A DNA stretch of 64,000 nucleotides from Eledone cirrhosa (taxonomy: Eukaryota): assembly GCA_964016885.1 (NCBI GenBank), contig OZ024741.1, positions 45,508,001-45,572,000 of the forward strand, in the 5' to 3' direction. Position numbers and translations under genes: made by a program. The notes beneath the pieces are model-generated. The model had not been told where the DNA came from, made no database searches, and saw only the letters and a program-made list of their open reading frames with translations. Of the stretch, positions 2,555 to 63,580 are shown piece by piece. The first letter of the stretch is position 1, and the number at the start of each line of letters is the position of its first letter.

Positions 2555-5500
2555 TGCATTTATCTTGCTTTATGTTTATACGAGTTATCACCAAGTCACA
2601 ACCAGTGACCTCAAGAGACAACAAGGTCCGCCATGTTCAAGAAAGAACACACATATTCACACATGCATCCTTAGTGTTTAGACTTGTGATGTACTTATAT
2701 TGACAGGATCTTCCTTAGTATATGGGCAGTTCCCATTAGTACTATCTTTTGTATTTCTCCTATACGCGGGTTTCCTGGGATTTGCGATAAGTAGTCGTTA
2801 GACCCCTTAGGTATCATTCCCAGAGCGCCTACAACCACTGGTATTGTTTTAGTTCTCAATTTCCACATTTTTCCAATTTCTATCTCCAGGTCCTTATACT
2901 TGCTCAATTTTTCAAATGTTTTTATAGATACATTCTTGTCTATTGGAACAGACATATCAATTAGCAGGCATACCCTCCTTTGAAAGTCCTTCAATATTAT
3001 ATCAGGTCTATTTGCATCTATTTTTCGGTCTGTTTGGATGCTAAAGTTCCACAAGATTGAGATGTGATCTTTTTCAAGTATGGGAGGTGGTTGATGCTCC
3101 CACCAATTCTTTTGATGGGGCAGGTCAAAATGCTTGCACATTATCCAATGTATGTATTGTGCAGCTCTGTCATGCCTGTTTAGGTATTCGGTTGGAGCTA
3201 TAGGACTGCACATTGAAATTATATGGTCAATGGTCTCTGGTTGTTTTTTGCATACACGGCATAATGGGCTGCACCCATTTTTTATTATGTTGGCTTGGTA
3301 ATTTTTTGTTGGCAGACACTGATCTTGTGCGGATATAATCAGTCCTTCAGTCTCCGATTTCAGTCCAGAGGATGCCAACCACTGATGGGTTAAAGTTTTG
3401 TCAACATCAGGATTGTTAGCTCGCTCTGGGTATTTTCCATACAGAGGCTTTTCTTGCCATTTCTTAGCCAGTTTCTGTAGCAGTTCTTTCTTTGCAGTTA
3501 CTTTTACCTGCTTTGCTTTTTCTGTGTTTTCCATTTCAGCAGTAAATGGGACTTCTGAAATTTGTAGTCCATTACTGTATCTTTGTGCATCTTTTGTAAT
3601 GGAATATGATCTATTGGTGCTTTCGTGTTTCAAAACGAGTTTGATCATCCAATCATGTGATTCCCTTAGATATGTGGATAATCCAATTGTTGCAGTTTTC
3701 AACGCAATGTCTAACTGGATTAACCCACGTCCTCCTTCTTTCCTAGGGAGATATATTCTATCTATGTCTGCCTTAGGGTGATGCATTCTGTGCATGGTTA
3801 AGAATTTTCGGATTTTTGTATCGAGCCTACGGATCTCTGTGCTTGACCAGTTGATGACATTGTAACTGTAGGTTACTACTGGTATGGCAAGCGTGTTTAT
3901 GGCATCGATCCTATTCCTTGCATTCAATTCCGTTCTTAAGATTGCTCTGACTCTGCGGTAACATTCCTTCCTTATCCTTTCCCTCATTGTCGAGTGCTTG
4001 ATTCCGTCTCCTTCACAAACACCTAGATATTTGTAAGTTTGTTCTTGATCAAGCTCTCTTATCACGTTCCCCCGATCAAGATTAATGTCTGAACTCTTCA
4101 GCAGCTTTCCTCTGGTGAACGTTGCTTTGGCGCATTTATCCAGTCCAAACTCCATTTTAATGTCATCACTGAACTGCTTCACAGTGGATAATAGCCCTTG
4201 CAATTGTTCATCATTTTTTGCAAATAGTTTCAGGTCATCCATGTAGAACAGGTGATTAATGGTTTTGTCATAGACTCTATATCCATGTTTTGTTTCATTG
4301 AGCATTTTACTTAATGGTATAAGTGCGATGCAGAATAAAAGCGGTGATAAAGAGTCACCCTGAAAAATTCCACAATTAATGTTAACTTCTCCAGCTTCCA
4401 GTGATTTTGTTTCACTATTCAAAAGGAGTGTCGTTCTCCATGTCCTCATACTGAATGACAAAAACCTCCTGATAACGGGGGATATTTTGAAAATCTCTAA
4501 ACATTTTTCAATCCAACTGTGTGGCAAACTATCAAATGCTTTTTTATAATCTATCCAAGCAATCGATAGATTTTTGTGTCTATTATGACAATCTTCCAGT
4601 ATCATTTTGTTAACCAGAAGCTGATCCTTACAGCCATATGAGCCTCGTTTACACCCTTTCTGCTCAATGGGAAATAGGTCATTTGTTATCAGGTGGTCAT
4701 ATGTGTATTCAGTTAGGACTGATGTTAAAATTTTATACATTGTGGTCAAGCAGGTTATCGGTCTGTAATTTTTGGGATTGTTTGTCTCATCATTCTTCGG
4801 TAGCAGGAATGTAATGCCGTTAACTAGCCATGATGGTATCTTTTCTGGCTCCTTAACTATTTCATTGTAAAGTTGGGCTAACAGCTCATGAGACTCTGTG
4901 AAGGCATTTATCCAAAAGTTTTGTATTTTGTCTTTTCCTGGGGATTTCCATTTGCTGGTTTTTCTTAGAGCCAAGCGCAGCTGTTCAACTGTTATATTTT
5001 CCCATGTTTGTTCTTCAAGGTGAGCTGTTTCTTTCATTTGTCTGTCTATCCATGGGGCATGTATGTTATGAACTTTTTCTTCGGCCCAGATCTTTTCCCA
5101 GAATTCTTGCACTTCCTCCTTGGGTGGTATTGATTTAGCAGTTATTGTTGACTTACCAATTTTTCTGTAGAAGTTTCTTTGGTTGTTTTTGAACATATTA
5201 TTGTCCTTATAGAATCTAGATCGTTTTTCAAAGCGCCTTATACGAGCAGCTTTGGCCGACACTTTTTGCTTGATTGTTTCTATCAGCATGTCTATGTCAC
5301 ATGTTGATCTTATACTGTACTTTTTTTTCAATTTTCTAAGTTTAGTTTGTTTAACATGTTCACCTACTTTATAGTTTGTTAAAATTTCTATGTCAGATCG
5401 GAGAAGGTTTATTTGGCGATTGATGTTATCTTGCCAAGTAGATTTCTTGTGGGAATTCCTTTGTTTTTTCATCTTCACTCCACATAAGTGAGTGGTGACT

Positions 5501-5944
5501 TTAGCCGATGCATAATAGAGATGATTTAAGTCAGTAATGCTTAGTTTGTTTGTGATGATAATGTTTTTGAGAATTATGTTTGTCTTGTGTATTATCTTTT
5601 GGTTCTGTTTGGAGTTCTGGATCTTAGGGAGGGTGTCTCGTTCCCCCATGTCAGATTCTTTCATTTTCATCCATTCGATCATAATTTCATCCTTCAAGTT
5701 GGCAAGTTCATTCTCATTCATTTCTTTATCATTTACGATCTCATTATTTTCATTTGGAGTTTCATCCTGAGCATGCACTCCCTCCACTTTTTCGCTCCTT
5801 TCTTTAATTTGTTCTGTTGCCAGTGATTCCGCCCCAACTCTGGGATTCGAAGTGTTACAGTTTACCTCGTTTTCACTGACACATGCTTCATTTTCCCTTC
5901 GCTGACTTTGTGCTACTAGCTTGATCTGATCAATTTCTATATCA

Positions 5945-5946
<2 letters not shown>
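2555..5946 (-). mobile_element. R4-clade (Dong-like) RLE retrotransposon, 5'-truncated, inserted in a (TAA)n microsatellite
   Basis: (TTA)n flanks both sides (2517-2554 and 5946-6005). Single RT-CCHC-RLE ORF followed by a 3' UTR of about 140 bp. Confidence 0.92.
2695..5946 (-). CDS. Reverse transcriptase + CCHC zinc knuckle + restriction-like endonuclease (uninterrupted frame, N-terminus missing)
   Basis: Motifs KSPGKD, NYRPITCL, EQKG, WIDYKKAFDS, GIFQGDSLSP, YMDD, YKYLG, CRVC..ETIDHIISMC, RHD, RPDI..IDMSVP..KLSKYKDL. The frame stays open upstream of the GTG at 5787 to TDIEIDQIK at the TAA junction. Confidence 0.92.
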
Positions 5947-6007
<61 letters not shown>

Positions 6008-6147
6008 ATTTAAGCATTTTTGTAATATTTATTTTATTAACGGAATTGCTGTTTTGTTTCAAAATTTATGATGCAATATTTCTATAAATTTCATGCTGCA
6101 TAAAATCCAATAATCACCATCAGCAATATCTACAAGTTATCGTTATG

Positions 6148-23186: not shown

Positions 23187-23266
<80 letters not shown>

Positions 23267-23434
23267 TATATATTTATATACATATACATATATACATATA
23301 TATATATGGATGTATATATAATGTATTTTGCAATACACTTTATGCTTAATTAAAAAGCATTATGAAGACCGTAAGCTATTGTTTTAAAGTAGTGACAAAT
23401 TCACTTACTTTGATCTCAGCAAACAGGGGAGATA

Positions 23435-23478
23435 AGCCGACAAGTCTTGTTTCGCTTTGGTTAAAGCTTATCAAGGCC
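23435..23478 (-). ncRNA. Type I hammerhead, U3-A8 variant
   Basis: ggcc-TTGATAA-gcttt/aaagc-GAAAC-aagactt-GTC-ggct. Confidence 0.8.
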
Positions 23479-23860
23479 AACTACCCCTCCTGTCTACCGA
23501 GATCACTGATGTTATATTCTTATAGAAATCTAGTAAATAATCAGGAGCTGATTATGCAGAGCGGTTGTTGGTCAGGCAGAAATTAAAAATTAGAATTGGA
23601 GCTCTGAGATCAAAGTAAGTGAATTTGTCACTACTTTAAAACAATAGCTTACGGTCTTCAAAATGCTTTTAATTAAGCATAAAGTGTATTGCAAAATACA
23701 TTATATATACATCCATATATATATTGCTATTTCAAAGCTCCAATTCTAATTTTTAATTTCTGCCTGACCAACAACCGCTCTGCATAATCAGCTCCTGATT
23801 ATTTACTAGATTTCTATAAGAATATAACATCAGTGATCTCGGTAGACAGGAGGGGTAGTT

Positions 23861-23904
23861 GGCCTTGATAAGCTTCAACCAAAGCGAAACAAGACTTGTC
23901 GGCT
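23861..23904 (+). ncRNA. Type I hammerhead, U3-A8 variant
   Basis: ggcc-TTGATAA-gctt/aagc-GAAACAAG-a-CTTGTC-ggct. Stem I extends through ggtag/ttatc and acagg/cctgt. Confidence 0.8.
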
Positions 23905-24114
23905 TATCTCCCCTGTTTGCTGAGATCAAAGTAAGTGAATTTGTCACTATTTTAAAATAATAGCTTACGGTCTTCAAAATGCTTTTAATTAAGCATAAAG
24001 TGTATTGCAAAATACATTATATATACATCCATATATATATTGCTATTTCAGAGCTCCAATTCTAATATATATACTAATATATTAATATATATATATATAA
24101 ACATATATATATAC

Positions 24115-24204
<90 letters not shown>

Positions 24205-24205
24205 G

Positions 24206-24243
<38 letters not shown>

Positions 24244-24244
24244 G

Positions 24245-24890
24245 GTAAATATCTTTAAGTCGTTTGGAAGCCTCGACAATGCAAATGGGTAAATCTCCGG
24301 GTAACAAGATCCGGTGGTGGAGAGAGAGATGTGAGTGGGTGTACGTTGAGATGCGTGGTGTGTATTAGATGTGTAAGATGTGTAGAAGAATGAAAGGAAG
24401 AGTATAAAGGATAAAATAAAGATAAAAATAACAACACGAGAGAGAGTTACTTTGGGAGAGAATTAATAGTCCCTATATATTTCGGATTCACATCCATCAA
24501 CTGTTTGTTGTTTTGATATTCAAAACAACAAACAGCGGAGGACGCGTTCCGGACCTGTCCGACAGACAACCTTTCTCCCACCCCGCAAAAAACCCTCAGT
24601 TGATGGATGTAAATTCGAAATATATAGGGACTATTAAATCTCTCCCAAAGTAACTCTTTCTCGTGTTGTTATTTTTATTTTATCCTTTATACTCTTCCTT
24701 TCATTCTTCTACACATCTTACATATCTTATACACACCACGCATCTCAACGTACACCCACTTACATCTCTCTCTCCACCACCGGATCTTGTTACCCGGAGA
24801 TTTACCCATTTGCATTGTCGAGGCTTCCAAACGACTTAAAGATATTTACTTATTATTCCACAATGCTTCAAGCAAACTTCAATACTCTCA
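24245..24890. mobile_element. Non-coding inverted-arm element (PLE terminus type)
   Basis: 24245-24503 is inverted to 24597-24849, and the right arm is about 40 bp longer. Decayed HHR-like ggat/atcc-GAAA-tatata-ggg. A solo arm recurs at 56018-56236. Confidence 0.75.
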
Positions 24891-39864: not shown

Positions 39865-40238
39865 CATAAAAATACCTGTCACTTAATTTACACACACATC
39901 GGCCCTACACTTTCAATCTATATTTTTCTGTAGAAGTAACTTTAACCCTTTCTTTTCGACATAAAAATACACACATACATACAAATACCTGTACATTTTT
40001 TTTTTTTGGGGGGGGGGGGGGGGGGCTTTCTTATCAATCTTTTTACATTCAATTATCAGCCTTATACTTTCAAAGTCAATTTTTATGTTGAAGTAACTTT
40101 CACCCTTTATTTTTCGATACCCATTTACTTACTAACATTTGTATCACAACAACAAGAACAATATTCATAAACAGACAGTAGACTTTCAAAGTCAATTTTT
40201 CTGTAGAAGTAATTTTCACCCTTTCTTTTGGACATAAA

Positions 40239-42262
40239 ATGCCACCTAAAAAGAGAAGTCGCCTCAGTCGACATACCGCGTCAGCAGTGGCGCAAAAGGC
40301 TACTATAGCAAACGAGTCCTCTGAGGAAAATGCTTCAAGACTTTCACAGACAGCCTTACGTTCAGCAGAATGTCGAGCCGCTGAAAGTTTCCAACAGCGC
40401 ACCGCACGCCTAGCCGAAATGACTTCATACCAGGCTTCTTCTAGGGCTTCAGAGAGCCATGAACAAAGGTCGAAGCGCCTGGCTAGAAACGCTGCGACTA
40501 ATGCTGCTTCCAGGTCTTTGGAACGTTTAAAACAACAGACGGCTCGCCTTCCTACGGACGCTGCGACTATGACTACTTCCATGGTTTCTGAAGATGCAGA
40601 CGGGCGGTCCATTAGCATTGCAAATGTTGCGTCTGCTATTGCTGCCAGACCTTCCCACCAACCACACGACCAATGTTCTACGTTCAAGCGTAACAGTCGA
40701 CGGCGAGAAGCTGCACGCGGTGTGACGAGCCCCAACAGCCCTTACTGGCACCTACGGGCTTTCAAGTATGAGCAAAACGTTAATTACTCGATGCGCTCTG
40801 ACATAAATATAGGCGAGATGCGCTTCAATTGCCAATTCTGCAATGCTACAAAGTGGGCTTGGGAGCCACCTGCAATGTGGTGCTTAAACGGTAACGTCAC
40901 CTTGACCCCTCTTCCGGAACCGCCAGAGCCTTTGAAGGAACTACTGACTGGTTATACCTGAAGGTCAAAAAAAAAAAAAACCCGGATCCCCCAAATAAAA
41001 AACGCTCCTAGGGGTACCGGAAAAACTTTTGTAACGAATTTGATTCTCGCTAAGATTCGTCAGGAGGAAAAAGTTGCGTTGTCCGTTGCATCGTCCGGAT
41101 CGCTGCTACTTTGCTGCCGGGAGGCAGGACAGCACATTCAACCTTTAAACTCCCTTTGGATTTAGTAAAAACTGAGACACCAACATGCAATATCAGCAAG
41201 AGTTCACACAAAGCTCTGGTTCTCAAAAGATGTTGCCTCATTGTTTGGGATGAGTGCGCAATGGCACACAAGGGTGCCCTTGAGGCATTGGACAGGTCCC
41301 GGAAAGACATTAGGGATTCTACGGCTTCTATGGGTGGCGTAACTCTTCTGCTATCAGGGGATTTTCGGAAAACGCTGTCTGTCATCCCCAAATGGACAAG
41401 AGCTGATGAAGTGCGTGCCTGTCTTAAGTCGTCCATGTTGTGGCTCCAGGTGAATAGTTTGTACCTGAGCACAAATATGCGTGCTCATTTGCATGGTGAC
41501 AACATGTCTGCAGCACAGAACATTTTAGCACTTGGTGAGGGCAAGATCCCTGCGGATGACAAGGGCGGCATAGCAATCGACACCCTGTGCAACATTGTGA
41601 GCAGCCCTTCTGACCTTTGGGAAGCAGTTTTTCCTAATGTCTCATCTAACTTTAAAAACCTCGATTGGCTCAGCGAAAGAGCCATCCTTGCTCCGAAAAA
41701 TACCATGGTTAATTTTATTAACGAGCAGCTGATTGATAAGATTCCCGGTAAAGAGCACATCTTCAAATCAGACCCCGACGATATCGTTAATTATCCGGTT
41801 GAGTTATTAAATCTCCTTGAGCCCCAGGGACCCACCTCACATTATTAAGCTTAGGGTTGGCTGTCCCATTATGCTAATAAGGAACTTGCGTGCACCAAAG
41901 CAGTGCAACGGTACTCGCATGGTCGTCAAGTCACTGACACCCACTTGATTGAGGCCACCATTGTAACGGGGTGCGGAAGGGGGGAGAATGTTTTCATTCC
42001 AAGGATGAACCTTTTCCCCTCGGCGTCAGATATCCCGTTCGATTTCCGACGATCCCAATTCCCGGTGAGACCATGTTTTGCCATGTCCATTAACAAGTCA
42101 CAAGGGCAAACATTGTCGGTGGCGGGCATCCATTTGGAGGAGCCATGCTTCTCCCATGGCCAACTTTATGTTGCCTGTTCCCGCGCAGGGAGCAGGAATG
42201 GACTTTTTGCTTACTCTCCTCAAGGGATGACACGCAATATCGTCTACAAAGAGGTGCTATAG
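40239..42262 (+). pseudogene. Helitron RepHel remnant: N-terminal zinc-finger region joined to a Pif1-like SF1 helicase, HUH Rep domain missing
   Basis: CQFCNATKW..EPP..C.NG..PEPPEPL, then from about 41000 APRGTGKT, GGRTAHSTFKLPL, IVWDE, GDFR, TNMR, FAMSINKSQGQTL, FSHGQLYVACSR, NIVYKEVL, with frameshifts. Confidence 0.9.
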
Positions 42263-43113: not shown

Positions 43114-45935
<2,822 letters not shown>

Positions 45936-55981: not shown

Positions 55982-56017
<36 letters not shown>

Positions 56018-56023
<6 letters not shown>

Positions 56024-56236
56024 TTAAGTCGTTTGGAAGCCTCGACAATGCAAATGGGTAAATCTCCGGGTAACAAGGGGTCCGGTGGTGGAGAGAGAGA
56101 TGTGAGTGGGTGTACGTTGAGATGCTTGGTGTGTATAAGATGTGTAGAAGAATGAAGGGAAGAGTATAAAGGATAAAATAAATATAACAACACGAGAGAG
56201 AGTTACCTTGGGAGAGATTTAATAGTCCCTATATAT
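56018..56236 (-). mobile_element. Solo arm of the 24.2-24.9 kb element
   Basis: Direct match to 24250-24482. Confidence 0.8.
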
Positions 56237-58162
56237 TTATTTGTGTGTGTGTGTATATATATATGTTTTTGTGGGTATGTATGTGGCTATGTGTATCCTG
56301 ACAAAACGGTATACTTTCTTATATAGACGTCTGACTATATATCAAGAATCTGAAATCAAGAGTATATCTCAGAAGGCACCAAAGTTAGACTAATTTCTGT
56401 ATACCTGTACAGCTGATTTTTATCATTGCATATACTTACCATATAGCAAAGGCTCGACAGGATAAAAGCTTCAATGTCCTACTTTATTTAATTTCTCTCT
56501 TGAAGGGGTAGTGTTACCTACTTGTGTGTTTCAGGGTGACGTACATAAAGTCAAATAAACTCAGGTAGACTTGGGTCGTAATTGACGAAATATGACCATA
56601 AATATAGCTGGACCATGATATATCTCACAGAGCAGGATTTAGAGTTAACCGTATCATATTTTAAGACATGCTTCACACTAATGTTGGGAATTGTTTCTTC
56701 AACTACGGTCCATTTAACAATTGCTGCTCCAATGAATTAGTTCTGAGAAAAAGTAACGATTTATCAGTGCCAGGTTCACACATACAAACGCAATTTTATT
56801 CCCGTATACATGATTATCTGTACGTTATCCATGCCCCAGCAAATTATTAGTCTTAATCAGAGATAGTATATAATTAGCGTCACTATGTAAAATCTATAAT
56901 GTAGTGATTTTATTGGCAGCATGCATTTCCATATACCATTACATATATTACATTTCTTTGACCACACCGAGTGGTAAACGGACCAGAATAAGACCCAAGA
57001 AATCTTATATAGAACAAACATTCTACAAGGATTAGTATGAGATAGAAATCAGACGATCGTTTGAAATAGTCAAGCCTTCATACCAGATGTACTGCTCGAC
57101 TGAGGGGCACCTATGTTTAGGCTAGTAAGACAAACGTCAGCAATATAACTTACACAATATTTGCCGAATTAGCGAATGTTGCGTTATATTCTAGTGAAAG
57201 CGTGACAATATATTAACCAGTTTTCACTACAACAGATTAGATATATTTGCATGCATACCTTTGCAAGTACGTTTGGAGTGTTTTAACATTAACATGTGTA
57301 TAATTATCGTAAAAATCTAAAGTTTTATTCCTATTTTGCTTTTCATGTAGCCTACGTTTCTTAGCTTCTTAAAACATATATCATTCTCATTTACACAAAA
57401 TCTCCATTCAATCACATATTTTTGAAATAGTTCAATAGGAAATATGTTTTTACTGAATCTTAATTAAATGTTTTCTATGAGAAAACTGAAATGAAAATAT
57501 GAGAAATGAATTTATCTGCAACAAGTTCACGAATATTCCAATATGAAGAAACTACAGAAGTGGTAGTATTACATTGGCGCAAATTCGCGTGACACCGAAA
57601 GAGCTTCAGCAATATGACTGATGTACTTACAGGATCAATAATTCAGAGTCTTCTCCAGCACGGGATTGAGCTAGAAAATGACAGATGATAATATTGCAAA
57701 TGAGCCATCTCTCTATCATGGATTATAGTGACAAGCTCTTGTATAGCATGAGTGCCATTCTCTAAGTTTCAGTGATTATTATATGATGATAAGTCTAAAA
57801 ACGATGACCAGTAGTGATGTATACTGCAGGCTTTACTACAGGGTTTCTCATTTCGTTGGATTCTTCATGTCCAGTGAAGATACGGTGAACCCTGACAACA
57901 ACCAGGAGGAATACATGAGTTCCCACGCCCGAATGGATGTTGTCATAATTATGAATAAGGGCACATCAACCCAGGTATTGAAATCGAGTGACTATTTTCC
58001 TAGACAGAATGCCACCCAAGACTGACGAGTTCTGTCTACCCACAGCTGCGCTTCAGTTGTCTGAGTCAGTTTGAGGCTCAAATTGTTTGGAAAATGTTTG
58101 TGGAGAGTAGATACTGGAAGCTACTCCCACTCCGGCAGTATAACCGCATGACACACACACAC

Positions 58163-58318: not shown

Positions 58319-58361
<43 letters not shown>

Positions 58362-58512
58362 ATACTTTGGGAGGGTCATGTTGCCAATAAGAAACACACG
58401 CACCAGTTGCTTTCACTTCAATTTAATTTAATATATATTTATAAATTTACAAATTTATAAATTTCTGGTTGGTTGGTTGGTTCCACAACCAGATAGTTGT
58501 TTATATATATAT

Positions 58513-58557
58513 AGTCATAGTTCTTTCGTCACACACTCTGTGACCTCTTCAGTGACT
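58513..58557 (-). ncRNA. Minimal type I hammerhead
   Basis: agtca-CTGAAGA-g-gtcaca/tgtgac-GAAAG-aa-CTA-tgact. Confidence 0.82.
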
Positions 58558-58854
58558 GGGGATTTCTTTCTTCGTTTCTGTGCCTTTCCTTTCTTCTATC
58601 CTACGCCATTTTGTTTGTGTGTGGGTTGCGTGCTCAGTTTGCGCATGCGCCACATCCGGGTGTCTGTGTGTGTTTGTGTTCATTTTTCTATTTTTCTATT
58701 TATATTTGTTTGTTTATTTATTTATTTATTGTTGGTTGGTTGTTTGTTCTATGTGTGTGTGTGTTTTCATTTTGTCTTGTGTGTGTTTTTATTTTGTGTG
58801 TGTTTTCAATTGTAAGTTGTTTGTTCTATGTGTGTGTGTGTTTTCATTTTGTCC

Positions 58855-61551
58855 TTAATTGTAAGTTGTGATGTTGCTGTTCCACTCATATTTTCTATTT
58901 AATTTTGGTTTTAATTCTTTTATGCTTACTGCCTCTGTAATTTGCCTAAACATTGCGTCTTTCTTGTGTGTGGATTCTATTTTTATTTCTATGCTCTCTA
59001 ATTTACCCCTGTGTTCTATCTTAGCATGTTGGTAGAGCACAGATGATTCTTTACTATCTTGGAGGTCTCGCCAGTGTTCATTTATTCGTTCCCCTATACT
59101 ACGAGCTGTCTCACCTATGTACACTATATTTTTGTTTCTACATTGTCCTTCAGTACATCTTATGCTATATACTACATTTCTAGTTTTACAGTTAATATGG
59201 GGGCTTATTTTACAGGTTATACATTTCTTATCTATACATGAGGGTCTTTGGAACGGGTATGTCTTGCTAATAAGTGTTTTTACGGAGGTATCAGGTCTTT
59301 CTACTATCTTAATATTGAGATTATGTTTCTTTAGGGCCCTTCTAAATTTGTAGGCTAGTTCGCCTCTAGGGGTTGTATTGATGAACATTACACTCTGGTA
59401 TTTATTGCTATCATACCATGAGTTTATTCTATTGGCCTTGTTCTTAGTTCTTTCTATTCTATTCCAAAATTTGCTCCTATACAAGGGGCAGGTCCCATTT
59501 ATGTCATTATTTACCATTTTTTCCCATTTGGTTCTGGCTCCTTTATACACTCTGATTCTATCTCTCTGATTGTAGCCAGAGAACTGCATACGGTGGATGA
59601 AGTGTTGTATGTGTCTCTCTAGTTCTTCGGGGTTGCACATGCGGGACACATTTCTCATCACCCGTATCAAATCCGCAATCAGTATGTTGATTTTGGTATG
59701 GTCCGAAATGGCCGAGTTTCGGTGGATCAGATGTTTGGAAGTCATGGGTTTGGCATAATGGGAATGGAGGATTTGTTTTTGGTTGTTAATAGTATCTAAC
59801 CAGAGCTCTGTGTCTAGTACAGGTAATCGATGGTTGGGGTATCTACTTGGGTAGTCTATAGTAACTCTAATGCTCTGGTGGATGGAGTTTGCTATTTGCT
59901 GGATGCTTTCCTTTGTGTTTTTCTCTGGTTCCTGACTGTTCTTTAGTGGGGGTGTCTTAACTACGATGTTTATATCATCTACGTAGCGGGAGTACATTAT
60001 CAGGGTTAAGCTGTCTTCTAATTGTTCTTTAAGTTTTTGTTTAAGTCTACTGTCCCACCATACCATGAACAAGTTAGCTATGTCGCCTGCAATGCTAACA
60101 CCAATGGCTGCTCCTTCCTCTTGGGCATATGTTTTACCATTAAATTTGAACATATGTTCCTTAAGGGTTAATTTTATGCTGGCCCCTACCGCATGTGCAA
60201 TCATTTTCTTCAGTTCATCGTGGTTTTCGGGTGTCCGTATGGCTCTGGTCCACCCGTTCCATCTATCTGTGTGGGTTTTCTTGGCCATTGAGGTAATGGT
60301 AGGTGGTCTGCCTCTTGCTGGTCTTGTAGGGCACAGGTTGCTAAGGTCATAAGTGTCTAGGTAAATATTACTATGGGTAAGCTTAAGTAGAAGTCCCAGC
60401 TCACTGGTATCAATCCCACGGAACTCAACCTTGCTCTCGCTGATCATTTCGACGCATTTCTCCACAGCAAAAGCCACGTCAATAGATGGATACAGGGACA
60501 CAACATCCATACTGCCTATTATGCAGTTTGTTAGGTCCCCAGATCGGTTACCCGCGCCGATCCTGCTGAGGAGGTCCTCCGTGCTGTCACACACATCTGG
60601 GGACATCTCAATGATGGGGCGTATGATCAGGGAGAGGAAGTAGGACAGTCTGTAGTTACTAGCAATGTTAGCCCCACAGACTGGCCGTGTTGGTGGTCCC
60701 GCGACAGGGTCCCAGCCCGTTTTATGGTCTTTTCGAAGCCCATACAACGCCGGTACGTCATTGTTCCAGGCCTGGAAGTTGTTGGCAGTCCTTTTGTTGG
60801 GCTGCATTATATTTGTCCACATCACCATATGGGCATTGAGGGTTTTTTCTCTATCCTCATGCTCCTGTGGTGTTACCTCTCTTGTGTTAGTGATGTGGGC
60901 TTGCATTGCCTGGATGTAGTTTGGCAGGCTGTCAACCGACATTCTGCCAGACTTGTCTGTTGGAAAGCATGCTATCTCTCCATTACGTGAGCGCTGCATG
61001 AGCTTACGCAAGCCATTTGCAGATTCTTCTCCCAGTTGCTGGGCCTCTATTCTATTATGCTTCTTGCTATACTGTTCTATAATATTTCTAAGTTCGGATT
61101 TAGCTATACTAAATTGTGCTTCTGTTTGTTCATCGACCTGCGACGGCAACTGCGTGCGTTTGTTAAATGGCAAAGTCGTGGCGTGGACTCGTCGTAGGTC
61201 GAATGATTTATCGGAGGGGTTATAAAACGGAGAGTTCCAGGCTGCTGCTTTATGTGTACTAGTGCTATTGTTAGTTGTGTTGTTTCTATTTCCACCAACA
61301 GCAGCAGCCTCAGCTTCATGGTTGTTTCTATGTCTCTCATAATTACTCCTGTCTCTTTCCACTGGCTCAATGTTGTTATCTACCCTATTTTGTGTGTCTG
61401 TGTGTTCGTCTTGGTTATTCTCTTTGTCCTTAGTCTCCCTACTCCTTTTAATCCTATTACTTTCTCTTATTTCTCTGATTTCTGTGCTACTGTCATTACT
61501 TGTTTTCTGTGTCTGTGTGTTTGTTAAGATTGTAGTGGTGGTGAGAGGCAT
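58855..61551 (-). CDS. PLE RT + GIY-YIG endonuclease (C-terminal 898 aa uninterrupted)
   Basis: PTDKSG, YGLRKDHK, TRPV, SMDVVSLYPSI, GAAIG, SRYVDD, LPVLD, CIDKKCITC, NVVYSIRC..VYIGET, ERINEH, ITEA, LN. Confidence 0.92.
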   Translation of the reverse strand: MPLTTTTILTNTQTQKTSNDSSTEIREIRESNRIKRSRETKDKENNQDEHTDTQNRVDNNIEPVERDRSNYERHRNNHEAEAAAVGGNRNNTTNNSTSTHKAAAWNSPFYNPSDKSFDLRRVHATTLPFNKRTQLPSQVDEQTEAQFSIAKSELRNIIEQYSKKHNRIEAQQLGEESANGLRKLMQRSRNGEIACFPTDKSGRMSVDSLPNYIQAMQAHITNTREVTPQEHEDREKTLNAHMVMWTNIMQPNKRTANNFQAWNNDVPALYGLRKDHKTGWDPVAGPPTRPVCGANIASNYRLSYFLSLIIRPIIEMSPDVCDSTEDLLSRIGAGNRSGDLTNCIIGSMDVVSLYPSIDVAFAVEKCVEMISESKVEFRGIDTSELGLLLKLTHSNIYLDTYDLSNLCPTRPARGRPPTITSMAKKTHTDRWNGWTRAIRTPENHDELKKMIAHAVGASIKLTLKEHMFKFNGKTYAQEEGAAIGVSIAGDIANLFMVWWDSRLKQKLKEQLEDSLTLIMYSRYVDDINIVVKTPPLKNSQEPEKNTKESIQQIANSIHQSIRVTIDYPSRYPNHRLPVLDTELWLDTINNQKQILHSHYAKPMTSKHLIHRNSAISDHTKINILIADLIRVMRNVSRMCNPEELERHIQHFIHRMQFSGYNQRDRIRVYKGARTKWEKMVNNDINGTCPLYRSKFWNRIERTKNKANRINSWYDSNKYQSVMFINTTPRGELAYKFRRALKKHNLNIKIVERPDTSVKTLISKTYPFQRPSCIDKKCITCKISPHINCKTRNVVYSIRCTEGQCRNKNIVYIGETARSIGERINEHWRDLQDSKESSVLYQHAKIEHRGKLESIEIKIESTHKKDAMFRQITEAVSIKELKPKLNRKYEWNSNITTYN

Positions 61552-62358
61552 TGAATGTGTGTGTGTTGTTGTTTTTGATGTGTGTTGTTGTTGATGTGTG
61601 TTGTTGTCTCCGTGTGTGTGTGTGTGTTATCGTTGTTGTGTGTGTTGTTATTGTTGTTTGTGTTTGCGTGTCTGTTGGTGTTGTATCTGGGTATGTTGCT
61701 GTTGTTGTTGTTGTTGATGTGTGTGTTGTTGTTATTGTTGTCTCCGTGTGTGTTGTTATTGTTGTTTGTGTCTGCGTGTCTGTTGTATCTGGGTATGTTG
61801 CTATTGTTGGTGTTGTATCTGGCTATGTTGCTATTGTTGTTGTTATTGTTGTTTGTGTCTGTGTGTCTGTTGTTGTTGGGATGTGTGTTGTATATGTGTG
61901 TGCGTATATTGTTGCTTTTGTTTTTGTTTTTGATGCTCCAGCGTAGTTTCGTAAATGATTTTTCTATTTCTGACAGACAACTAATCATATTTACCTTCTT
62001 GAATGTCGCAAATTTGGGTGGCAGACGTAACACAGACATTTCATTATTATCTATTTTCGTGTTTCCATAAATGTTGGTATTTTCATTGTTGAACTCTTCA
62101 GATAATGAGGTGTCGGCCATGTTGATACCGTCAATTTTGTCGGGATATCTATTGGTATACTCTATAGTATCCCGATGTAGCTTTGCCTGTTTAAGCCACT
62201 TTAATTTTCTGTTAAAGTGCTTATTACATTCTTGAGTAATGTACTGTTCTTCGGGGCGTATAAGGCTTATAAATGTTAGTTTTTCTGCTGGTGTGGTGAT
62301 TTTAGATATTTCATCTATTAGGTTACGCTTTAGTTTTTCTTGATGACTTAATTCTCTA
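61524..62358 (-). pseudogene. N-terminal part of the same PLE ORF, out of frame, with an Asn-rich repeat insert
   Basis: ECNKHFNRKLKW..NIYGNT..LRLPPKF..EIEKSFTKLRW is homologous to 43106-44048. Confidence 0.8.
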
Positions 62359-62362
62359 TAAC

Positions 62363-63580
62363 TTGTTCATGGTATGGTGGGACAGTAGACTTAAACAAAA
62401 ACTTAAAGAACAATTAGAAGACAGCTTAACCCTGATAATGTACTCCCGCTACGTAGATGATATAAACATCGTAGTTAAGACACCCCCACTAAAGAACAGT
62501 CAGGAACCAGAGAAAAACACAATGGAAAGCATCCAGCAAATAGCAAACTCCATCCACCAGAGCATTAGAGTTACTATAGACTACCCAAGTAGACACCCCA
62601 ACCATCGATTACCTGTACTAGACACAGAGCTCTGGTTAGATACTATTAACAACCAAAAACAAATCCTCCATTCCCATTATGCCAAACCCATGACTTCCAA
62701 ACATCTGATCCACCGAAACTCGGCCATTTCGGACCATACCAAAATCAACATACTGATTGCGGATTTGATACGGGTGATGAGAAATGTGTCCCGCATGTGC
62801 AACCCCGAAGAACTAGAGAGACACATACAACACTTCATCCACCGTATGCAGTTCTCTGGCTACAATCAGAGAGATAGAATCAGAGTGTATAAAGGAGCCA
62901 GAACCAAATGGGAAAAAATGGTAAATAATGACATAAATGGGACCTGCCCCTTGTATAGGAGCAAATTTTGGAATAGAATAGAAAGAACTAAGAATAAGGC
63001 CAATAGAATAAACTCATGGTATGATAGCAATAAATACCAGAGTGTAATGTTCATCAATACAACCCCTAGAGGCGAACTAGCCTACAAATTTAGAAGGGCC
63101 CTAAAGAAACATAATCTCAATATTAAGATAGTAGAAAGACCTGGTACCTCCGTAAAAACACTTATTAGCAAGACATACCCGTTCCAAAGACCCTCATGTA
63201 TAGATAAGAAATGTATAACCTGTAAAATAAGCCCCCATATTAACTGTAAAACTAGAAATGTAGTATATAGCATAAGATGTACTGAAGGACAATGTAGAAA
63301 CAAAAATATAGTGTACATAGGTGAGACAGCTCGTAGTATAGGGGAACGAATAAATGAACACTGGCGAGACCTCCAAGATAGTAAAGAATCATCTGTGCTC
63401 TACCAACATGCTAAGATAGAACACAGGGGTAAATTAGAGAGCATAGAAATAAAAATAGAATCCACACACAAGAAAGACGCAATGTTTAGGCAAATTACAG
63501 AGGCAGTAAGCATAAAAGAATTAAAACCAAAATTAAATAGAAAATATGAGTGGAACAGCAACATCACAACTTACAATTAA
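62363..63580 (+). CDS. Inverted duplicate of the PLE RT C-terminus + GIY-YIG (partial)
   Basis: Same protein as the C-terminal 405 aa of 58855..61551 apart from K/M, Y/H and D/G changes. Confidence 0.88.
   Translation: MFMVWWDSRLKQKLKEQLEDSLTLIMYSRYVDDINIVVKTPPLKNSQEPEKNTMESIQQIANSIHQSIRVTIDYPSRHPNHRLPVLDTELWLDTINNQKQILHSHYAKPMTSKHLIHRNSAISDHTKINILIADLIRVMRNVSRMCNPEELERHIQHFIHRMQFSGYNQRDRIRVYKGARTKWEKMVNNDINGTCPLYRSKFWNRIERTKNKANRINSWYDSNKYQSVMFINTTPRGELAYKFRRALKKHNLNIKIVERPGTSVKTLISKTYPFQRPSCIDKKCITCKISPHINCKTRNVVYSIRCTEGQCRNKNIVYIGETARSIGERINEHWRDLQDSKESSVLYQHAKIEHRGKLESIEIKIESTHKKDAMFRQITEAVSIKELKPKLNRKYEWNSNITTYN

Follow-up and report, generated by a model that had tools for sequence, protein, structure and literature searches.

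A non-coding hammerhead repeat of Eledone cirrhosa with the insertion footprint of Penelope-like elements

Introduction

A link between non-LTR retrozymes of animals and Penelope-like elements was already proposed in 2020, in the part of that paper available to us (PMC7229834), and a 2026 preprint, in its available main text, bases the case on co-occurrence and on similarity to pLTRs (bioRxiv 10.64898/2026.07.22.740005). The kind of element described here is therefore known. In the accessible portions of these sources, and in bioRxiv 10.1101/2021.04.23.441226, the enzyme that mobilises animal retrozymes and the origin of the tandem, inverted and tailed insertions of Penelope are both called open. 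Penelope insertions are marked by a tail of 30-40 bp at one of their ends, by an inverted copy that is truncated and by a preference for (TA)n (bioRxiv 10.1101/2021.04.23.441226; PMC3846280). The tail has been explained as the stretch between two internal reverse transcription start sites, both target strands being nicked and extended (Frangieh 2024, PMC11167929). For anole Penelope the same source reports that ribozyme cleavage is dispensable, that unprocessed RNA is the main substrate and that the start sites are alike between strands.

We analysed a 64,000-nt stretch of the Eledone cirrhosa genome (contig OZ024741.1, positions 45,508,001-45,572,000; 'the window'), in which a first-pass annotation had proposed a 316-bp hammerhead unit, mobilised by Penelope machinery. 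From the sequence comparisons below we think it probable that the element is a non-LTR retrozyme insertion, for which a predicted circular RNA of one unit served a Penelope-like enzyme as template.

Results

The insertion consists of two head-to-head arms. The direct arm (23604..24066, + strand) contains one full 316-nt unit (23605-23920) and runs on through 23921-24066, a 98% copy of the first 146 nt of the unit; the 316-bp head-to-tail period of the first-pass annotation is thus present. The inverted arm (23298..23607, - strand) is 98% identical and reads unit 128-316 followed by 1-120. As had also been described, this near-complete inverted unit is joined through CTGA microhomology, a 4-nt overlap at 23604..23607. 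Both outer ends merge into the (TA)n target (left flank 23227..23297, right flank 24067..24243), the left one at the AT patch of the unit itself. This patch (unit 111-120; 23715..23724 and again 24031-24040, + strand) is the short-end site. What the annotation had overlooked is that the outer ends are not equivalent: the right, direct arm exceeds the left by 26-35 nt and reaches a long ('tail') end. The one-sided tail corresponds to unit 121-146 (24041..24066, + strand); including the whole AT patch, which begins at 24031, would lengthen it to at most 35 nt. Just 3' of the long-end site lies a 26-nt motif (23755..23780, + strand) that is common to a sister family described below and occurs 17,832 times genome-wide; we infer that it is a candidate protein-binding site. 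The unit has a GC content of 34.5%, its longest open stretches are 34 codons on the RNA strand and 87 on the other, and its predicted fold beats 100 of 100 shuffled sequences (z -3.75).

Other repeats occupy the same window. An unrelated two-armed element in (TA)n adjoins the insertion at 24244-24890, with a tail of ~40 nt on its right arm only; further copies lie at ~56015-56238 of the window and at loci L056 and L169, and no hammerhead was found in the 24244-24890 fragment. At 2695-6009 (-) and 40182-42262 there are a reverse-transcriptase frame of 1,104 aa and fragments resembling a helicase, which may represent a non-LTR element and a Helitron-like one.

The unit contains a predicted type I hammerhead with a long stem I (23835..23927, + strand), and a second copy lies in the inverted arm (23412..23504, - strand, core from 23474 down to 23439). 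The earlier description is borne out at the core (23865-23900), a U3-A8 variant: UUGAUAA starts the core at 23865, stem II is GCUU/AAGC, stem III is the near-palindromic ACAAG-A-CUUGU, and the GUC ends at 23900 in the + copy and at 23439 in the - copy, placing the predicted cut after C23900. With one hammerhead on each strand the locus cannot release a monomer, as the annotation had recognized; it is a product of insertion, not a source. The Rfam model HH9 has a gathering score of 52, and its matches to the two copies stay below it at 27 bits (E 2.7e-4) and 24.6 bits (E 1.6e-3); a scan of the whole 64,000-nt window gave no Rfam match at or above the gathering score.

Support for the fold was sought in an alignment of 11 hand-picked sequences, from the 316-nt family and four relatives, on a structure drawn on the window copy alone. 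In this set 92.7% of the alignment cells pair, and sliding the partners lowers pairing to 36-50%. All four pairs of stem II covary, the 3-8 core pair is UA in seven sequences and CG in four, and double-sided changes occur in 13 of 31 pairs, a count that relatedness inflates. Of 185 units, 173 retain an intact core. The mutation rate of the core (0.94%) is no lower than that of the rest of the unit (0.94-1.03%), as expected of dead copies, and conservation of the core therefore adds no support for a ribozyme. Folding prediction favours an inactive rod over the active hammerhead fold by 6.5 kcal/mol (-44.6 vs -38.1 kcal/mol). Self-cleavage is plausible for the predicted hammerhead. Among Xenopus retrozyme dimers just one of nine was cleaved in vitro, according to the available text (bioRxiv 10.64898/2026.07.22.740005). 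Dozens of distinct hammerhead-like motifs are present in the loci compared, including an unrelated inverted pair, also with a UUGAUAA core, at L182:7101 and 7295.

A search of the genome (3.0 Gb) with the unit returned 1,303 candidates, and the 40 that were scored include full-length matches at 95-100% identity. Genome-wide, exact patterns of the 316-nt family occur 199 times for the ribozyme core, 418 times for the long end and 331 times for the short end, which implies several hundred insertions at the least; the family includes several stem variants. It is a young dispersed family and the window copy is one insertion of it. A single-copy unit, which the first-pass annotation had named as an outcome that would speak against its reading, is excluded by the 199 cores and 418 long ends. 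The same applies to a lack of permuted or multimeric copies, since pure-unit arrays are common and their inner ends are permuted. Two or more hammerheads on one strand were found at 32 of 71 loci, which are possible sources. In one insertion the two arms are separated by a LINE (L061:2415-6572) whose open frame is 1,040 aa long.

The sister family has a 310-nt unit that is ~73% identical over unit 49-193 and carries a canonical core and a CGCG loop III. It was seen at L004:2044-3316 and at L101-L162, in arrays of up to ~17 near-identical units, and has 4,587 exact cores genome-wide. This family looks very recent, the 316-nt family being the older of the two, and makes the better experimental target. 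Further diverged sister units are present at L096:616-1036, L163:1907-2990 and L144:4700-5200; among them are one CUGAGGA core, one degenerate core and one perfect palindromic stem III.

The difference between the two outer ends proved to be a rule. Ends fall into two classes, short (unit 111-120, the AT patch) and long (unit 144-154, mostly 146 or 151). We tallied 70 distinct insertions, picked by best match or by exact core, with duplicates dropped. Thirty-eight are two-armed, tail-out insertions with one short and one long end; short plus short and long plus long were each found 0 times. Of the others, 13 have one end that fits neither class and 19 were classed as one-armed, two of which (L061 and L079) are short plus long when inspected by eye. 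An end-pattern scan took the first 100 exact long ends among the matches listed, together with the 71 short ends of that span. Among those matches, tail-out short-long pairs occurred 31 times and both long-long and tail-out short-short pairs 0 times; the scan shares at least three loci with the tally of 70. When 20 unpaired long ends were examined, 12 had a short partner, one had a partner ending at 129, seven had none, and no partner was long. The sister family obeys the same rule at 17 of 17 two-armed loci. At irregular targets the short end can lie as early as unit 111-113. Regarding the target-site duplication of ~8-14 bp that goes with Penelope-type insertion, duplications of 12-14 nt with a non-TA irregularity could be read at three of 28 loci (L061, L068 and L082), the others being unreadable in (TA)n or ambiguous. 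Variable 5' truncation, an inverted copy and an AT-rich target are further Penelope-type features of the insertions. Judged by these ends, the counts show a non-coding 316-nt unit that carries the insertion footprint of Penelope. Together with what has been published on the tail, the footprint therefore indicates that Penelope enzymes made the insertions. Simple twin priming in the manner of L1 was rejected, as the outer end of an arm bears no relation to the inner end of its partner.

The inner ends and the predicted cut site bear on the form of the template. Measured from the predicted cut site, the two start sites are ~140 nt (short) and ~166 nt (long) downstream, and a linear, cut monomer could therefore yield only short arms that stop at unit 297. 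Inner ends are instead uniform round the unit: 4 of 120 fall within 6 nt of the cut site (unit 297), with 4.9 expected. In addition, 195 units span the cut site without an indel scar. The template was therefore either circular or uncut.

Variants shared between units bear on the choice between these two cases. In the sister family (20 loci) divergence is 0.09% within an arm, 0.04% between the arms of a locus and 1.06% between loci; 28 variants are fixed in both arms and none in one arm only. Minor alleles within an array are present in more than one unit in 1 of 14 cases and recur at another locus in 0 of 14. The 316-nt family (71 loci) has 41 variants fixed in both arms vs six in one arm, with divergences of 1.95% within arms, 2.04% between arms and 2.63% between loci. 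Here the gap between within-locus and between-locus values is small, so it is mainly the sister family that carries the haplotype argument. The units of each insertion thus go back to one sequence, usually common to both arms. One haplotype in both arms fits rolling reverse transcription of what would be a single circle. Locus-fixed variants concentrate in the ribozyme region, in the 316-nt family (12 of 18 types within unit 226-292) and likewise in the sister family (10 of 15 types within sister unit 238-291), and several of those in the ribozyme region keep stem I paired. A-to-I editing was considered as a source of the haplotypes and is not supported: relative to the consensus, A>G accounts for only 2 of 18 and 5 of 15 variant types, which are too few and unpolarised.

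The same inner ends and seamless cut site would fit equally well if what Penelope mobilised were a read-through transcript, multimeric and uncut, from a homogeneous array, with no circle and with the hammerhead as a passenger or serving another step. Such a route agrees with the use of unprocessed RNA by anole Penelope in vitro (PMC11167929) and with the rod fold favoured in prediction. A single haplotype runs through all units of both arms, however, whereas loci differ from one another ~ten to twenty-five times more. One haplotype per insertion therefore calls for a bottleneck of one unit followed by re-amplification, while the copying of multimers should pass on mixed arrays. Copied from a homogeneous array, an uncut transcript would yield the same single product, but array-wide fixing of new variants would be left unexplained, and the compensatory changes that maintain the ribozyme fold across the sister families also speak against a passenger. 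We regard the uncut transcript as unlikely. Reverse transcription around a circle, which the annotation had suggested, is favoured by the haplotype and inner-junction tests.

Penelope elements in this genome also carry hammerheads, sit in (TA)n targets and follow the short/long end rule, and the 2026 preprint derives retrozymes from pLTRs in its available text (bioRxiv 10.64898/2026.07.22.740005). One might thus regard the unit as a mere terminal repeat (pLTR) of a coding Penelope-like element, its copies being 5'-truncated. Against this, sequence past the tail re-enters the unit and no open reading frame follows (34 codons at most on the RNA strand). An in-line Penelope reading frame within 900 bp upstream was found at 0 of the 23 one-armed or near one-armed loci tested, so the unit is not always the terminus of a coding element, a possibility the annotation had allowed for; pure-unit arrays, as noted, are common. 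No coding Penelope resembling the 316-nt unit was found as a parent among the loci compared. We therefore consider a mere terminal repeat very improbable, and descent of the unit from an old pLTR possible.

A young coding Penelope-like family in this genome has short and long end classes 43 nt (sometimes 56 nt) apart, paired as in the retrozyme. It encodes a CX4CX2C linker before the GIY-YIG motif, a feature assigned to Neptune and Nematis (Craig 2021, bioRxiv 10.1101/2021.04.23.441226). L205, considered as a long/long exception in this family, was discarded, as its left arm continues into coding sequence. A broken copy of the family that is fused at L165 lies in the window at 43497-45751 (95-98% protein identity), with the tail inside the start of the coding region. 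A different Penelope-like element, at 58360-63580, has a 923-aa frame on the - strand (58855-61626), a head-to-head second arm (62306-63580) and its own hammerhead in the 3' repeat (core from ~58552, - strand).

At L165 a long-end arm of the coding Penelope family is joined in line to the 316-nt unit at U295 with a 2-nt overlap; the predicted cut, after C296, is one base further on, and the opposite arm is the 316-nt unit with a short end. This single case reads as a template jump onto what would be a ribozyme-cut end, within one reaction; it could instead be a later deletion between nested inserts. L163, L056, L088, L146 and L228 were discounted as further fusions because nesting and deletion explain them too. 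At L146:4228-5264 and L180:1352-1480 retrozyme arms are fused to another hammerhead-bearing family, by template switch or nesting. The mobilisation by Penelope that the annotation had proposed is thus backed by the one-sided tail (38:0 and 31:0), by the same pattern in a coding element and by one fused insertion.

That single units inserted once and arrays then grew in the manner of a satellite, by DNA-level duplication or unequal crossover, is hardly credible: array growth at the DNA level after insertion did occur at L085 (G000:C1:293635237-293643479; 26 units with a duplicated 6-unit block), and local amplification is proposed in the available text of the 2026 preprint (bioRxiv 10.64898/2026.07.22.740005), but young sister arrays are multimeric in both inverted arms and almost free of variants, only one in 14 minor alleles occurs in more than one unit, and the outer ends are fixed at two sites.

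Discussion

Copying of a circular retrozyme RNA by a Penelope-like enzyme could proceed as follows. Source loci with two or more hammerheads per strand would be transcribed, and the ribozymes would excise a monomer that is then ligated into a circle. A Penelope RT/GIY-YIG protein would bind the circle, for which the conserved motif 3' of the tail is a possible site, and would nick both (TA)n strands; priming would use the short site for one strand and the long site for the other. Both cDNAs would circle the template for anything from a fraction of a turn to many turns and would finally be joined head to head through microhomology. We tentatively suggest, as a possible geometry, that one Penelope complex primes both nicked strands at two sites of a single RNA circle with both polymerases rolling, and that L165 represents a captured ribozyme-cut end. 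If true, this geometry of one circle and two sites would explain why Penelope-like elements in general show a tandem, an inversion and a tail on one side. Any model is constrained by the strict pairing of short with long ends and by the single haplotype per insertion. For an in vitro test the 316-nt family provides a template of 316 nt, a target, two start sites that have been mapped and a candidate for the coding partner.

In the literature searched, which included few subscription journals and neither Repbase nor preprint supplements, we found no report of a retrozyme with the one-short/one-long rule, a single haplotype in both arms or a cut-site fusion. Head-to-head insertions with a one-sided tail were not found in the available passages of PMC7229834 (0 occurrences each of 'tail' and 'inverted'), and 'tail' and 'inversion' have no match in the main text of bioRxiv 10.64898/2026.07.22.740005.

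By its sequence features the 316-nt family fits the metazoan non-LTR retrozymes, with cleavage and circle as predictions. As far as the available text describes them (Cervera and de la Pena 2020, PMC7229834), these share with it a non-coding tandem unit in the 150-450 bp range, low GC, one type I hammerhead per unit, dispersed copies from monomers to long multimers and coexisting Penelope-like elements. The U3-A8 core and a 4-bp near-palindromic stem III set the 316-nt unit apart from the retrozymes in those passages, and circular RNA and cleavage were shown there, whereas the 316-nt family is known from sequence. The nearest precedent for the core is provided by the U3-A8 hammerheads of the Schistosoma Penelope element Cercyon (Cervera and de la Pena 2014, PMC4209133, available part), which have the same core covariation; those motifs are minimal and lie in pLTRs, whereas the 316-nt unit has full stems I-III and stands alone.

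Endonuclease-bearing Penelope-like elements (Craig 2021; Arkhipova 2013, PMC3846280; Frangieh 2024, PMC11167929) resemble the family in their partial tandems, inverted 5'-truncated copy, 30-40-bp tail at one end, (TA)n bias and hammerhead upstream of the ends. Unlike them, the 316-nt unit has no ORF. The strict pairing of one short with one long end was counted for the 316-nt family, whereas the in vitro work of Frangieh 2024 revealed no difference in start site between strands. Li, Clavereau and Pollet (2026, bioRxiv 10.64898/2026.07.22.740005) draw the same inference, that Penelope moves retrozymes, for units of similar length. In the available text their basis is co-occurrence and pLTR similarity; ours is an insertion footprint, with no parent pLTR found. 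The 316-nt family thereby joins retrozyme mobilisation and Penelope insertion by footprint, not by co-occurrence.
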